From: an uncultured Candidatus Poseidoniales archaeon
Lineage (GTDB): Archaea > Thermoplasmatota > Poseidoniia > Poseidoniales > Thalassarchaeaceae
Direction of reading: 5' to 3'
DNA length: 55,983 bases
Assembly (NCBI GenBank): GCA_964645485.1
Contig: CAZXZO010000011.1
Span: forward strand, 1 to 55,983
The translations under genes were made by a program, and so were the position numbers. This document shows positions 49,199 through 55,983 of the stretch, piece after piece. Positions within the stretch are counted from its first letter, which is position 1. Each line of letters begins with the position of its first letter. The notes below the pieces were generated by a model, which saw only the letters and a program-made list of their open reading frames with translations, was not told the origin of the DNA and searched no databases.

Positions 49199-52100
49199 TC
49201 AGAAAAAATCGTCTAATGTGTACACTTTCACACGGTCATTTTTGAATAAACTATCAAGTGAATCTGCTAAGACTGCATATTTTTGTTGAGTATAGTTTGA
49301 TGTTCCAAACGTTTCCATAACGTGATTTGCTACTTTGACATATTTCCTCACTGCCCCTTCTGACACCGTCATAATGAGGTTGCCACCACATTGCATTGGG
49401 CCTTCGCTTCGAGTGATTGCTGCTGTACCTGTAGTGGCTTTAATTGGTTTAATGCATTTACCAGATAGTGGGGCCCTTCGAAATTTTTCTCCACAACGAC
49501 CACACCTGAATTTTTGACGAGTGAAGGCCAATAAATTACCTCTCAAGTCGGGGAAGAAATGAGATTCAACTACCGACGATGCCACCTTTTCAACATTCAC
49601 AGAGCGTAGACGCTGGGCCAAAGAAATTTGAGCATTCATTTTGTCAACCATTGTATCGAGTATCTTGTATGCAGAGTTAGATGGGCCTGCGTCCAACGAT
49701 GTTAAATCGTGAGTATAGCCATATCCTCTTAGTGCACCAACGGTGCCAATTCTCTTTTCTACGAAATCCATGATTTCAGTTACTTCTTTTGGATGTGGCA
49801 TTTTAGTAGTTGCTTCATAGAATTCCCGTGGATAGAACCAAGCAGAATCAACATTCAACGCTTCCTTATCCAATTCAGCTGGGTTCAAACGTGTAGTAAG
49901 AACAAGTGGCGCATCCATTCTACCGCCTCTATTTGCAGGAAGTATTTGTTTAGAGAAATTTAGTAAACCATCAAGCAATAACATGATACAATCTTCATCT
50001 CCATCACAATTTCTACGCTTAGCAGCATGGAAAAGTGTGTGGGCATAACCACCTGAGGCATCGGTAAATCCAATAATTCTACAAAGCACACCACCAGATG
50101 TGTGGGGTGCTAATGCAATTCCCATTTGGCCAACAAGTCCTTCCACATCTTCAACATTGTAATATGGCTCCATTTTGTAGAATCTAATTAGCATATCATC
50201 AATAAAATTGCAAGTGTTCATTAAGTGAGATATTCCTTTCGAACTTGGGATAAAATCTTGAGGATACAACTCTATTACTTGAGTATCTGATTCAAGGGGT
50301 GCACCATCCACATCCGAGTCATAACCAAGTTCAACCAAGCGTTGCCAAGAAGTACCTATTTCACAAGGCCTAAAGTGAGTTACAGGGATATCGGACATGT
50401 CAAACCTCACAGTCCCATCACGAAACACGGGTAAATTGTGGTGGGCGCGTAATATTCCTTTCTCAAGAGGTTCTGGTGTTTGGGTTTTAGAAGTTAAACC
50501 CTTAATGCATTTCACCTTAGGGATTTTGTCAATCTCCAGTTCTTCAATCTTAGATTCAAGGATATTTGTTAATGGAATCGTTTGAAATTCACCTTGCCGG
50601 CGGCTATTGGGATTTGATGATTTAATTTGCAACGTCCTACCGTTACAAGTTGAGGCGAAATCGGCTGCATCTAGGCGATGGTGACATCTCATGAACGGTG
50701 AAGGCCTGCCGCATTTAGTACACTCACGAGCCCCCATTGAAATTCTCAAATTACCCCGACTTGATGCAACAGTGAGTAAACGCTGAGGGCCACCTTGAGT
50801 GCCCACCGGGAATAATGAATGGACTGAGGTTTTCATCAACCGAGCGGCCGCTTTTTCGGGTCGAGCCATCCTCGCTCCAATACGGACTGGAGTATTGTGT
50901 TCCCACCTTGCTTCACTGCATTCTCTAATGATGTTGAGTATACCATCAACCTCGTGCTCATCAAGCAATTTTTGCGCAGCAATTAGCCGGTCTGGGTCAG
51001 TGGTGCCTTCATCTACAACTGTTGCTGCTGCTTCATCTCCGGCTTTGTCAGTGGCTGCAATCCCTTCTCCTCTCTGACGAGCCGCTGTTTGAGCTTGAAT
51101 TCGAATTTTTTCTCTTTTTTCTTCAAGAATATTATATCTTTCTGATTCTGTTTTGAGAATTTTAATGGCACCTTCAATTCGCTGAAAACGGTCTTCGAAA
51201 TGGGGTAACAATTCTACCCTCTTCACAATCTTTTCATCTTGTACCTTCAATCCCAACCCATCTAGCAATCCTTCCCAACTAGATGTGACAATAATGTCAT
51301 CACCCGTGTGGTGATGGGGTAGCCCTAACAGCATCATAGAGGTCTTTAACATGCCATGTTGAAGGTGTAAATCTCCACACCGATACGATGCTTTGAGTGG
51401 TGGAGGAATCTCAATTTTATTTCCAGGTGGGTTGCTGGCTTCACCTTCTTGATGCCAGCCTTTTGCACCATCTTTCAACCTCATCCAGTGTATTGATGTT
51501 GCATCATTATTCCATGAATCTTGAGGAGATTCCTCAGCAGATACTATCTCTGCCTCTTGGATAATCGAATGTAGTACTGCAAGCCATTCTAAAGGTAAAT
51601 CCAACCAATTTAAATTCCAAGGAGGTGGAATCGCACAATTGAATTGATGGCTAATTCTGAGTGCAGAGTTCCAATCAAGTGGCATTGTTTGCAAGTGCTT
51701 GACCCACGATTTCTTCAAGTGAAATTTATCCAAATCATCATTTGAAATCATACCGGGTATTCCATCAGGAAGTTGTGACCTGTCAATTTCTAAAGCCTTG
51801 ACAAATTTTGACAAAGACTCCTCATCATCAATTGCTTCAATGAGTTCTGCTGCCCACCAATCACGATTATACGCAGAGGGAATGAGATTCTTATTATTCT
51901 CAAGAAACTCACCAAAACCTAGCATCATTTCTCCATTATCCCAAATAGAAATGACTTCATCGTCAATTTCATTCCACTGTGACAATATATCTACTCTACC
52001 AAATTGACCATCTTTGAGAATCACGGTTGGTCCCTGAAGTGAGTCACAAGGTGTGATAGCACACGCTTTCCCAGGTCTTTCTATTTTCAATTGGGTGCCT

Positions 52101-53185
52101 ACAGCGATGAATTCCCCCATCGCGTGCATTGTAACTGGTGACAACGCTCCCGCGGCCAAGCCTGTAGCCCGAGACCTTCCGTATCTAAGGCGGAAACCAC
52201 CTGCTGCAAGAGGTTCTCCAAATACAGGTCGGCCCGCAATGATGTCTTCCATGAATCTAGTAATTGGCTTAATTGAGCGCTTTTCAAACCCGCCGCCATT
52301 TCCTTCTTCCTCAGCCTTGCTCTTATTGGCAAAATGGCTGATGAACTGCCATCCTTCAATTTTCAATCTCTCAGTATGTTTCTGTACTTTAGGTGCTTTG
52401 AGGCATAATCCTTCACCAATTACGAGCAGAACACCACCTCTTACCCGTGAGCCATCTACATTCTCAATATTACCATATCCAGCGCATTCTTGAGCCTCCG
52501 TGGATTCCCCATTCACCATTATTGGGCAGGCTTTGACAATTGTTTCAATCTCTTCTGGTGGTGGCCGATATTGTAAGTTTCCGCGGTATAAACCAAATTC
52601 TTCTTTGACCCTTTCAATCTCTTCATGCCGGGCAATGTATGGGCCAACATCCAACTCCCTTCTCACTACATCTGTGATGAGTACTGCCAATGCTTGGGCT
52701 GTGCCACCAGCGGCCCGAATCGGGCCGCAAAAGTCTACGGAAACAAATCGTGAACCATCAGCATTATTCAGTAATCTCACATTACTAATACCTTCAAGCG
52801 GCGCCACAAGTACTGCTTCAGTCAATATTGCAAGTCCAACCCGCAATCCAACCTCAATTGCTTTCACTAAATCTCCAGTGCGTGTATGATACCTCTTAGC
52901 AACCGTTTTACTCATTTCAATGGCTGTAGTTTCCCGGTCAACTTTTAGCAATAGTTGTCTTAGTTCTTCTGCAATTTTCAAACCATCTAAATATTCATCA
53001 AGCAATTTTTCAGTTCTATCTGCTAGGTCGGATGCCCTAGGGATTTCAACTTCCTCCGTGAAGTCTTTACCTAAACTTCTTGCCTTTTCAGCAATTTGAT
53101 ATTCAATTTCACAGCGCTCATCCAGCCAGGCATGGTAAGCATCCATCTCTTTGGATAGTTGCTCTTCATTCCAAGGATGTAACAT
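49199..53185 (-). CDS. polC: DNA polymerase D large subunit (DP2)
   Basis: GPIRAAGGT, GGFRLRYGRSR, RPEKA, DGTVRFD, AKRRNCDGDED, C-terminal CxxC zinc module. Confidence 0.97.
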   Translation of the reverse strand: MLHPWNEEQLSKEMDAYHAWLDERCEIEYQIAEKARSLGKDFTEEVEIPRASDLADRTEKLLDEYLDGLKIAEELRQLLLKVDRETTAIEMSKTVAKRYHTRTGDLVKAIEVGLRVGLAILTEAVLVAPLEGISNVRLLNNADGSRFVSVDFCGPIRAAGGTAQALAVLITDVVRRELDVGPYIARHEEIERVKEEFGLYRGNLQYRPPPEEIETIVKACPIMVNGESTEAQECAGYGNIENVDGSRVRGGVLLVIGEGLCLKAPKVQKHTERLKIEGWQFISHFANKSKAEEEGNGGGFEKRSIKPITRFMEDIIAGRPVFGEPLAAGGFRLRYGRSRATGLAAGALSPVTMHAMGEFIAVGTQLKIERPGKACAITPCDSLQGPTVILKDGQFGRVDILSQWNEIDDEVISIWDNGEMMLGFGEFLENNKNLIPSAYNRDWWAAELIEAIDDEESLSKFVKALEIDRSQLPDGIPGMISNDDLDKFHLKKSWVKHLQTMPLDWNSALRISHQFNCAIPPPWNLNWLDLPLEWLAVLHSIIQEAEIVSAEESPQDSWNNDATSIHWMRLKDGAKGWHQEGEASNPPGNKIEIPPPLKASYRCGDLHLQHGMLKTSMMLLGLPHHHTGDDIIVTSSWEGLLDGLGLKVQDEKIVKRVELLPHFEDRFQRIEGAIKILKTESERYNILEEKREKIRIQAQTAARQRGEGIAATDKAGDEAAATVVDEGTTDPDRLIAAQKLLDEHEVDGILNIIRECSEARWEHNTPVRIGARMARPEKAAARLMKTSVHSLFPVGTQGGPQRLLTVASSRGNLRISMGARECTKCGRPSPFMRCHHRLDAADFASTCNGRTLQIKSSNPNSRRQGEFQTIPLTNILESKIEELEIDKIPKVKCIKGLTSKTQTPEPLEKGILRAHHNLPVFRDGTVRFDMSDIPVTHFRPCEIGTSWQRLVELGYDSDVDGAPLESDTQVIELYPQDFIPSSKGISHLMNTCNFIDDMLIRFYKMEPYYNVEDVEGLVGQMGIALAPHTSGGVLCRIIGFTDASGGYAHTLFHAAKRRNCDGDEDCIMLLLDGLLNFSKQILPANRGGRMDAPLVLTTRLNPAELDKEALNVDSAWFYPREFYEATTKMPHPKEVTEIMDFVEKRIGTVGALRGYGYTHDLTSLDAGPSNSAYKILDTMVDKMNAQISLAQRLRSVNVEKVASSVVESHFFPDLRGNLLAFTRQKFRCGRCGEKFRRAPLSGKCIKPIKATTGTAAITRSEGPMQCGGNLIMTVSEGAVRKYVKVANHVMETFGTSNYTQQKYAVLADSLDSLFKNDRVKVYTLDDFF

Positions 53186-53322
53186 TGCTCAATCGCCGTC
53201 CCGCTTCCCAACAAAGCAGTTTAGAAAGCGGGCGCTAAAAGTCATTCGCACTGTGCAAGATTAGATAATTAGTAGAAATTCAGAACTCGCAACGTTGATG
53301 GCCCTGCCTTGATTACAACGTT

Positions 53323-53922
53323 TTGGCGACAAGCATGGGCGAATCAACAAGCACACTGGATGCAAAGGAATCATTGATTGAGAAAATACGAGAACTAGCT
53401 TGGCTTCGTTCAGACCACGAAGAATTCACCTTGGCAAGTGGGCGTACCAGTCGTCACTTTTTTGATATGAAACCAGTCATGATGGATCCACAATGTGCAC
53501 ACTATCTCGGGGTGTTAATCCATGCCAAACTCGAGGAACTCGGGGGTATTGACACAGTTGGGGGGCTTGAACTTGGAGCGGTTCCATTAACCGGGATTGC
53601 CATCGCTAAGGCAGGAGTGGGCAGTAATCTCAGAGGATTCATAATGCGAAAAGAACCCAAAGGTAGGGGCGGGCGCAAAACAGGTAATCCACCGGGCATT
53701 GAGGGCTCGACTCTAATTGCGGGTGACAGGTGTGTCATCTTAGAAGATGTAACCACCACAGGTGGCTCTGCTCTAAAAGCAGTTGACAGACTTATTGAGA
53801 TGGGTTGCGATGTTGTTGGTTGCATCACAATACTTGACCGCCAAGAAGGAGGGTTGGAGGCATTCGCGGAAGCGGGTGTGCCGCTGTATCCTTTAGCAAC
53901 TCTAGCGGATATTGAAGCGTAA
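53323..53922 (+). CDS. pyrE: Orotate phosphoribosyltransferase
   Basis: FTLASGRTS, GLELGAVP, RKEPKG, ILEDVTTTGGS PRPP-binding loop. Confidence 0.92.
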   Translation: MATSMGESTSTLDAKESLIEKIRELAWLRSDHEEFTLASGRTSRHFFDMKPVMMDPQCAHYLGVLIHAKLEELGGIDTVGGLELGAVPLTGIAIAKAGVGSNLRGFIMRKEPKGRGGRKTGNPPGIEGSTLIAGDRCVILEDVTTTGGSALKAVDRLIEMGCDVVGCITILDRQEGGLEAFAEAGVPLYPLATLADIEA

Positions 53923-54011
53923 TTTTATCCCATATTTTATGCCTAATCATAAGTTTATAGAGAAGGTGTTTTGAATACATCAAATGCAACTCAGTAATTA
54001 TTATAGAGAAA

Positions 54012-54482
54012 GTGAATAATACTCTCCCCCCCTCTCGACAAAAAGGGTATTGGATGACCGAATCTCAAAACGCAACTATCGTTCGCCGTTGGTTTGAAGA
54101 AGGTTGGAACAAAAATAATTCAAATCTGATAGACGAAATATTTTCACCATCTTTTCGTGCTGATGGTGGCCCGCATGGAATGCTTGATAGACTTGGGTAC
54201 AAACAGTACTTTGAGGCTGTTCACCGTGCTTCACCAGATGTACAGTGCAGAATTATTGAGTTAATTGATGCGGATGAATATGTTGTTTCAAAAATCATCT
54301 CAGAAGGTACCCACTCAGGTTCTATCAAGGGACTTGACGCCTCTGGGGAATTTATTTCTACAGAGATAATTGATATTTGGTATATTGTAGATGGGAAAAT
54401 CGTAGAGCGAAAAAATGCTGAATTTGATTTACTTGGACTCAAAGAACAGGTCAATCAACGAGTTAGATATGAAAAAGAATGA
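54012..54482 (+). CDS. SnoaL-like ester cyclase (NTF2-like fold)
   Basis: ATIVRRWFEEGWN...EGTHSG...DIWYIVDGKIVE; likely start ATG 54054. Confidence 0.85.
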   Translation: MNNTLPPSRQKGYWMTESQNATIVRRWFEEGWNKNNSNLIDEIFSPSFRADGGPHGMLDRLGYKQYFEAVHRASPDVQCRIIELIDADEYVVSKIISEGTHSGSIKGLDASGEFISTEIIDIWYIVDGKIVERKNAEFDLLGLKEQVNQRVRYEKE

Positions 54483-55048
54483 CTTTTTCCTCTATATGGT
54501 TAACCATTAGACTCAAAATCTCTAGGCCCCCGGCCTTATTCATGACAAACGTATTGATGCAGACTAGCGAAGGAAATGTGACCCTTGAAGTATTCACCGA
54601 AAAGATGCCTATTACAACAGCAAATTTTCTAAAATTAATTGATGAGGGCTATTACAATGGGTTGCACTTTCACCGAGTTATCAAAGGCTTCATGATTCAA
54701 GGTGGATGTTCAATTTCCAAAGACCCGTCATCCCCAAGATGTGGAACGGGTGGACCTGGATACACTATTCAAGACGAACACCCATCAGACGCACAATTCA
54801 CTAATGATGTTGGTACTCTTTCAATGGCTAACACTGGCCGACCAAACTCGGGTGGGGCGCAATTTTTCATCAACACAAATCACAATTCATTCCTTGATTG
54901 GTGGGATAGAAGCACACCTTCTGCCCACCCTGTTTTTGCTAAGGTGACTGAAGGTATGGATGTAATCAGAAAAATTGAAGGGAGTCCAACCGGAATGCAA
55001 GATAGACCAAAAACTCCAATCCAAATCGTTTCCATCACACGTGTGTGA
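54479..55048 (+). CDS. Cyclophilin-type peptidyl-prolyl isomerase
   Basis: FHRVIKGFMIQGG, LSMANTGRPNSGGAQFFIN; likely start ATG 54542. Confidence 0.95.
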   Translation: MTFSSIWLTIRLKISRPPALFMTNVLMQTSEGNVTLEVFTEKMPITTANFLKLIDEGYYNGLHFHRVIKGFMIQGGCSISKDPSSPRCGTGGPGYTIQDEHPSDAQFTNDVGTLSMANTGRPNSGGAQFFINTNHNSFLDWWDRSTPSAHPVFAKVTEGMDVIRKIEGSPTGMQDRPKTPIQIVSITRV

Positions 55049-55066
55049 TTTGGTTTTTTTTGGTTT
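55049..55066 (+). terminator. Oligo-T terminator after the cyclophilin gene
   Basis: tttggttttttttggttt directly after the TGA, with T8 at 55054-55061. Confidence 0.5.
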
Positions 55067-55156
55067 AACCGACCTATTTGCAATGGGTTTCAATAGCGAT
55101 TATTGAACTATTATTACTTCGTTAATTTATTAAGTAACCGGCTACGTCCTTTGTTT

Positions 55157-55983
55157 ATGGCAAAGCATCGAGCAGGTGATCGGAGAATAATTAGCATCAG
55201 CATTCCAGAGGATTTGGCTAAGCGGCTTGATAGGAAAACAGGGCGCGGCCGTAAAGGCGGACGCTCTGCAACAATCACCCAACTCATTACCTCAGGATTA
55301 GAAAATGATTCTCATATTCAATCTTCAAATAACGCAGAAGTGACTTCCCGTAGTGCTGATGCGACACAAGGGGAAGTGCGGATTGAAACAGACACAATGG
55401 GTGAATTGCAAGTTCCAGCCGACAAATATTATGGCGCCCAAACTGCTCGTTCCCTGATCAATTTTGATATTGGTAACGATATAATGCCAAGAGCATTAAT
55501 CAGAGCATTTGGCATTTTGAAGCAGGCGGCTGCAGATACTAATCTAGAATTAGGTGAATTAGATAGTGCTACTGCGAAATTAATCAGCAAAGCTTGTGAT
55601 GAGGTAATTTCGGGAGAATTAGATGGGCATTTTCCACTCAGGATTTGGCAAACTGGTTCAGGCACTCAAACCAATATGAATTCAAATGAGGTTATCGCAA
55701 ATCGGGCAATTGAGATCGCCGGGGGTAAATTGGGGAGTAAAACACCTGTTCACCCAAATGACCACGTCAACAGAGCACAATCTAGTAATGACACTTTTCC
55801 AACAGCAATGCACATCTCAGCGGCAGAAGAAATTCACCATCAATTATTACCCTCGCTAAACCATTTGAAGGCTGTTTTATCCTCGAAGGCTGATGAGTTT
55901 TCTAGCATAGTAAAAATCGGCAGAACTCACTTAATGGACGCTGTACCACTTACTTTAGGTCAAGAATTCTCTGGTTATGTTGC
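55157..55983 (+). CDS. fumC: Class II fumarate hydratase with N-terminal ribbon-helix-helix domain (3'-truncated)
   Basis: Translated by hand from ATG 55157 with no stop to the window end: [73 protein letters not shown]. Confidence 0.95.

Follow-up and report, generated by a model that had tools for sequence, protein, structure and literature searches.

A ribbon-helix-helix domain fused to class II fumarase in an uncultured marine archaeal order: a candidate archaeal trigger enzyme

The class II fumarase (FumC) of an uncultured Candidatus Poseidoniales archaeon, an ocean archaeon of the Marine Group II type, carries an N-terminal module with the sequence signature and predicted fold of a ribbon-helix-helix (RHH) domain, the DNA-binding-type domain and the metabolic enzyme being covalently fused in a single open frame which, judging from orthologous genes, is conserved across the order. 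The protein, here termed RHH-FumC, consists of a basic arm (aa 1-8), the RHH domain (aa 9-49), a linker of about 24 aa and a class II fumarase from aa 74. By analogy with PutA, RHH-FumC may be an autoregulator that binds its own A/T-rich core promoter, a reading to which we assign a probability of about 0.5. The arrangement joins a housekeeping enzyme itself to a DNA-binding-type domain and has been kept under strong selection across an abundant order of uncultured marine archaea.

Architecture of the fused gene and its two modules

The window, meaning the whole stretch of 55,983 nt that was analysed, is the entire contig G000:C11 of an 82%-complete assembly. The open frame starts at an ATG at 55157 and runs on the plus strand to 55981 with no stop codon, being interrupted by the contig end after 275 residues (Table 1). 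The C-terminal half of fumC was not found anywhere in the 82%-complete assembly. The translation is letter-for-letter identical to that read in the initial annotation for an ORF running off the window, and the start of FumC that was placed there at codon 75 (nt 55379) can be accepted to within one codon because the alignment with the TIGR00979 fumC_II model starts at residue 74. The variable linker between the two modules, put at about 25 aa, is likewise recovered with a length of about 24 aa.

Table 1. Features of the fumC locus in the window
Feature	Positions	Strand	Basis
T8 run, likely archaeal oligo-T terminator	55054..55061	+	Sequence reading; terminator function inferred
Proximal promoter (-40 to -1), candidate operator region	55117..55156	+	Slow divergence; element unique in genome
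TATA box TTTATTAA	55126..55133	+	Centred some 27 nt 5′ of the A in ATG 55157
Start codon and basic N-terminal arm MAKHRAGD (aa 1-8)	55157..55180	+	Conservation in 69 distinct orthologues
RHH domain (aa 9-49): strand RRIISISIP, helix, basic Gly-rich loop GRGRKGG, helix	55181..55303	+	Pfam RHH_1, AF2 model, structural matches, dN/dS
Flexible linker (aa 50-73)	55304..55375	+	Sequence variable, length conserved
FumC N-terminal 202 residues, ended by contig edge	55376..55981	+	TIGR00979 model positions 1-202; Lyase_1 E 1e-55

The cyclophilin gene that precedes fumC is followed, directly after its stop codon, by the T8 run, a likely terminator between the two genes. The genes upstream of fumC encode the PolD large subunit DP2 (49199-53185, minus strand), a phosphoribosyltransferase (53323-53922), a SnoaL-like protein (54012-54482) and the cyclophilin PPIase (54479-55048), and no functional link to fumarase is evident among these neighbours (window 49199-55048).

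The Pfam model RHH_1 (PF01402, cut-off 20.5 bits) matches residues 12-45 of the protein, with 21.1 bits (E 3e-4) for the isolated 55-aa domain and 17.9-20.3 bits, just under the cut-off, for the same region inside the longer protein, falling to about 17 bits in the full-length protein, so the margin is thin. Since the match is sub-threshold in the full-length protein, public records show only Lyase_1 and FumaraseC_C and the fusion is invisible in annotation. RHH_1 was matched by 20 of 20 diverse orthologues with a best E of 3e-6. Searching the PDB with a profile of the RHH module gave the RHH domains of NikR (2bj1) and MazE as the best, though weak, matches, with SISIP...NRSEAI of NikR aligned to SISIP...GRSATI of the module, and NCBIfam nikR matches were also obtained.

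In the AF2 model, the domain has an extended N-terminus followed by helices at residues 18-28 and 35-53 (pLDDT 78), with a strand at residues 9-13 in the model of the full-length protein. Foldseek found no match to the small model in the PDB at E <= 0.001. An exhaustive structural comparison (VIA-align wide) gave a list whose 50 best solved chains are almost all RHH proteins, with Z values of 3.1-5.1 and rmsd mostly 2-4.5 Å over 40-55 residues, including Rv0298, ArtA, AmrZ, TacA, NikR, Arc, omega and ParG together with the PutA RHH-operator complex (2rbf, Z 4.1). Z values of 3-5 are modest because the domain has only about 45 residues, and the weight of the comparison lies in the uniformity of the RHH list and not in the Z values. 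Homodimer prediction for the 55-aa domain gave a score of 0.27 against a mark of 0.42, which counts neither for nor against. The RHH pattern that had been read by eye at residues 9-49 is thus borne out by Pfam RHH_1, by the strand-helix-helix order of the AF2 model and by a structural list made up almost wholly of RHH proteins. With the fold predicted by AF2 and the PDB profile matching NikR and MazE, the N-terminal module is best described as an RHH fold with the signature residues of the superfamily.

The remainder of the fragment aligns with TIGR00979 fumC_II from residue 74 to its end (model positions 1-202, 336 bits) and with Pfam Lyase_1 at residues 82-275 (E 1e-55). The score is below the fumC equivalog cut-off for full-length proteins (664.75 bits) because the gene is cut off at the contig edge; P0002, a full-length orthologue of 534 aa with 92% identity, scores 784 bits over all 458 positions of TIGR00979, exceeding its scores against the aspartase models. 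WQTGSGTQ and further FumC catalytic motifs are intact in the window, in which the first three signatures (TGSGTQ, HPND(H/D)VN...SSND) are present. The SS loop (GSSxMPxKxN) falls past the contig end, reading GSSIMPGKVNP in P0002 and being invariant in 27 orthologues, and the FumaraseC_C domain, present in the orthologues including P0002, would likewise lie beyond the contig end. The FumC part is canonical in the regions compared and is probably active. A search of the genome itself and four relatives found no class I fumarase, and there was one FumaraseC_C per genome among those of this set that hold the full gene, which points to RHH-FumC, the only fumarase found, as the fumarase of the TCA cycle.

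Distribution, selection and repeated loss

Of the 40 nearest relatives, 27 show the full 1-275 architecture, their open frames being 531-576 aa long. Among the 121 genomes of the order, a search with the RHH profile detected fused genes in about 80, including 56 of the 59 in the family to which the window belongs. The extension is thus conserved in relatives, whereas a lack of conservation would have counted against the reading by the terms of the initial annotation. The fusion is also contained in 202 public protein clusters (90% identity), mostly at 530-540 aa, coming from marine metagenomes and from MAGs named Ca. Thalassarchaeum or Thermoplasmatota. All 202 bear the name 'class II fumarate hydratase' alone, with the N-terminal domain unnamed.

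Between close pairs, dN/dS was 0-0.04 for the RHH domain and 0.03-0.05 for FumC, with values of 0.2-0.7 for the linker. The length of the linker is held, FumC starting at aa 70-75 in 73 orthologues, and its pLDDT is below 50 over residues 47-60, predicting disorder. The recurrence of the same architecture with near-zero dN/dS in dozens of related genomes places the fusion far beyond chance, and indicates that it is genuine and ancient and that purifying selection on it is strong.

A maximum-likelihood tree of the FumC core (36 loci) follows the genera. Unfused fumC genes are nested within fused clades at four to five places (genus g2, genus g9, a subclade of g7 and two in g8), the loss of the RHH domain sometimes falling inside a single genus. 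The simplest reading of this nesting is that the fusion is ancestral and that the RHH domain has been lost at least four times within the order. Repeated loss implies that the module is dispensable, and with at least four independent losses the order would offer a natural experiment in which such lineages can be set against those retaining the RHH domain.

No stand-alone copy of this type of RHH domain was found in the unfused genomes, in which there are only NikR-like ORFs of about 130 aa, the same class of ORF that gives the next-best RHH matches in the genomes searched. An exhaustive profile search of 1.84 billion representatives detected no other enzyme fused to this type of RHH domain, returning only fragments of RHH-FumC and weak matches to ordinary small RHH proteins. 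Likewise, no fused form was found outside the order in 301 sampled genomes of the phylum (RHH profile, E <= 1e-4).

Several candidates and variants came to light in these searches. An apparently stand-alone RHH of 47 aa in another genome (G028:C16:14517-14654, locus L090) probably represents part of a copy that is either additional or mis-binned, and was not taken as a separate gene because it lies at the very end of its contig; the same genome also carries a complete fused gene. RHH matches in long frames of 433-447 aa from other families of the phylum were rejected as fusions, since the genes behind them are of the ordinary NikR-like kind, about 135 aa long and situated in high-G+C DNA. NikR-like RHH proteins of about 135 aa in other families (L087:1-537 and L088:1112-1699; MAILSISLPDDLL...HGSITILYPH...) directly adjoin, in two genomes, an ORF of about 200 aa resembling a PduO-type corrinoid adenosyltransferase. 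A second, divergent form of RHH-FumC with 521 aa and the N-terminus MPTKGRPRTHDARIVSVSFPSELLEKMDEIESIAENRSQWIVEAV... occurs in genus g9 (L089:171-1736, genome G090). In this form the Gly-rich basic loop is missing and the linker is shorter; no RHH_1 match is reported at E <= 0.01, and the family profile matches at E 3e-6. Positions 16-51 of the RHH profile also match at G076:C37:27745-27852, inside an open frame of 660 aa, which may be a different fusion or reflect read-through from a gene upstream.

Core promoter and DNA-facing surface

In an alignment of 46 non-redundant orthologous upstream regions, the TATA box at -30..-23 is the most conserved block and the nucleotide at -1, directly ahead of the ATG, is a pyrimidine (C or T) in every case. 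This is the TATA-plus-initiator geometry of an archaeal leaderless mRNA, indicating that the transcript is leaderless and starts at the ATG of the RHH domain. In several relatives there is a stop codon a few codons 5′ of this start. The Met encoded by codon 80 is itself conserved in FumC (DTMG), and no TATA-like sequence was seen in the window sequence 5′ of this internal ATG. A start near codon 74-81, which the initial annotation had set against its own reading, is at odds with the location of the promoter and initiator at ATG 55157, and an internal start is countered by this promoter and by the near-zero dN/dS of the extension, no TATA-like sequence having been seen before codon 80.

Within the proximal promoter lies the element CGTTAATTTATTAAGTAAC (55120-55138). 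Among orthologues of the genus, the proximal 40 nt have a JC divergence of about 0.08-0.27 compared with 0.3-0.75 for -100..-41 and a synonymous-site divergence of 0.23-0.95, such that the proximal region diverges 3-5 times slower than the distal spacer and synonymous sites. Allowing up to 2 mismatches, the genome contains no second copy of the 17-mer GTTAATTTATTAAGTAA. The corresponding block in many other genera has the sequence TTTATTAATAACTAATTAA, in which about one helical turn separates two ATTAA units, and in four other genomes the equivalent 18-mer has its best match only at fumC with no excess over a reversed-pattern control elsewhere. A regulon scan of the genome and four relatives with the 17/18-nt element (<= 3 mismatches) gave no other close copy. 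The motif TTTAWWAA at -38..-26 is rare, occurring at 3/966 in a survey of about 960 long ORFs of the genome, which is noisy because start-codon calls are crude and does not allow a genome-wide TATA consensus to be defined. The conserved block coincides with the TATA box and initiator, and so may simply be a strong core promoter. Two palindromes in the region, TTCAATA-N5-TATTGAA (55089-55107) and TTACTT-N12-AAGTAA (55114-55137), were set aside as chance occurrences in A/T-rich DNA because neither is conserved even in orthologues of the same genus.

Residue conservation was counted in 69 distinct orthologues. R10, I11, S15, R36 and S37 are invariant; position 13 is S in 65 and T in 4, position 35 is G in 64 and N in 5, and positions 12, 14 and 16, the alternate residues of the core, vary among I, V, L and M. 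In the arm, M1, H4 and G7 never vary, and K3, R5 and D8 are nearly invariant. RHH domains are obligate dimers that bind DNA as a dimer, inserting a two-stranded ribbon into the major groove. From the alignment with Arc and NikR we take residues 11, 13 and 15 to be the strand positions facing the groove, and G35-R36-S37 presumably caps helix B and grips the phosphate backbone. The most conserved residues thus lie on the face expected to contact DNA. This speaks for a DNA target that is itself conserved, and it is fairly likely that the module binds DNA. The outward strand residues Ile/Ser/Ser form an unusual recognition surface of poor hydrogen-bond donors, well-studied RHH repressors having Arg/Asn/Thr at the outward strand.

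Proposed autoregulation and alternative readings

FumC enzymes are homotetramers, and with RHH domains binding DNA as dimers the RHH-FumC particle should present two RHH dimers. The tetrameric core would display these on flexible tethers, an arrangement resembling that of NikR and suited to a two-part operator. The site proposed for binding is the A/T-rich core promoter of fumC itself, reaching from TATA box to start site, where bound RHH-FumC would exclude TBP/TFB or RNA polymerase and so repress its own transcription. Archaeal repressors usually act by covering the TATA box or start site. The only candidate site for RHH-FumC is its own core promoter, unique in each genome examined. Given DNA binding by the module, we put the odds of autoregulation at roughly even. 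An added metabolite-sensing function, in which fumarate or malate at the active site or allosteric B site would alter the spacing or availability of the RHH dimers and so couple TCA flux to transcription, appears doubtful. Were the proposal to hold, RHH-FumC would be the first DNA-binding fumarase, with TCA-cycle flux read out directly as transcription. It would act at its own promoter and possibly others in one of the most abundant groups of surface-ocean archaea, and would give the connection of fumarase with DNA in bacteria and eukaryotes a physical precedent.

The nearest functional parallel is PutA, the classic trigger enzyme, in which the trifunctional protein shares an N-terminal RHH domain joined to an enzyme and acts at the put promoter as autogenous repressor of its own transcription (PMC5293562). 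In PutA of E. coli, Salmonella and Pseudomonas putida the enzyme is a proline dehydrogenase/P5C dehydrogenase, whereas here it belongs to the aspartase/fumarase superfamily. PutA is bacterial, dimeric and switched by flavin reduction and membrane binding, whereas RHH-FumC is expected to be a tetramer acting at an archaeal TATA/TFB promoter. By sequence the closest relative of the RHH module is NikR, which has a central ligand-binding tetramer flanked by two RHH dimers on a two-part operator. The C-terminus of NikR is a small ACT-like nickel-binding domain, whereas RHH-FumC carries an enzyme of 460 residues, and the archaeal protein differs further in its long flexible linker and in the basic Gly-rich insertion between the helices. 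Pfam detects no NikR_C after the RHH domain, only Lyase_1 and FumaraseC_C, and so RHH-FumC is not a NikR, though its RHH domain is NikR-like.

We know of no characterised fumarase with a DNA-binding domain, the known link to DNA operating via localisation or partner proteins. RHH-FumC shares the catalytic motifs and the full TIGR00979 model with the canonical FumC enzymes (E. coli FumC, B. subtilis CitG and human FH), and class II fumarases have DNA-related second roles in both bacteria and eukaryotes (PMC5711358, PMC6068284). Full-text searches of papers on fumarase with ribbon-helix-helix and on Marine Group II fumarate hydratase yielded no described RHH-FumC fusion, in agreement with what the initial annotation had stated. 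On these comparisons RHH-FumC is placed in the class II fumarases and in the RHH superfamily, being a member of neither PutA nor NikR. As a candidate archaeal trigger enzyme it would be a simple case, with one protein, one candidate operator and a leaderless promoter.

The DNA-related roles of other fumarases raise the alternative that the RHH domain tethers the enzyme to the chromosome, anchoring it to DNA at low or A/T-biased specificity, with fumarate and malate being interconverted at the nucleoid, for example in a DNA-damage response, and not for transcriptional control. The B. subtilis class II fumarase is induced by DNA damage and co-localises with DNA, acting via L-malate and RecN (PMC5711358), and the yeast and human enzymes act at double-strand breaks (PMC6068284). 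Binding of low specificity, or with a bias to A/T, would be in keeping with the Ile/Ser/Ser strand, the basic arm and the basic loop GRGRKGG. However, characterised RHH domains are sequence-specific operator binders, a specific site accords better with the invariant outward residues and with a conserved element found once per genome, at the fumC promoter, and there are no repair genes linked to fumC in the window, such that a chromosomal tether is unlikely.

It is equally conceivable that RHH-FumC regulates other genes, for instance at TCA-cycle or C4-dicarboxylate promoters, tying their expression to the level or substrate of fumarase, with its own promoter perhaps also a target. Trigger enzymes and NikR-type tetramers commonly control small regulons, and the invariance of the recognition residues across the order implies a conserved target sequence. 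The scans with the 17/18-nt element in the genome and its four relatives, which gave no further close copy, count against such a regulon, although real operators may be more degenerate, and we regard this reading as improbable.

A role for the RHH domain away from DNA, as an extra dimerisation clamp stabilising or regulating the tetramer, in docking a partner (as in antitoxins) or in binding RNA, would draw on the obligate dimerisation of RHH domains, which could cross-link subunits, and on the repeated loss of the domain from an enzyme that is kept. The conserved features are nevertheless those that make the DNA contacts of RHH-DNA complexes (the G-R-S cap, the outward strand residues and the basic arm), a disordered linker of 24 residues argues against a rigid structural part and no toxin-like gene neighbours fumC in the window, so this reading is quite improbable. 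Finally, that the N-terminal extension is an annotation artefact, the upstream frame being chance or a remnant and the protein beginning at the FumC domain, is extremely unlikely, for although unfused FumC exists in some relatives and public annotation is silent on the N-terminal domain, no TATA-like sequence was seen before the internal Met, the dN/dS of the extension is near zero, its start codon is conserved with stops just upstream, and the promoter and initiator sit exactly at ATG 55157.
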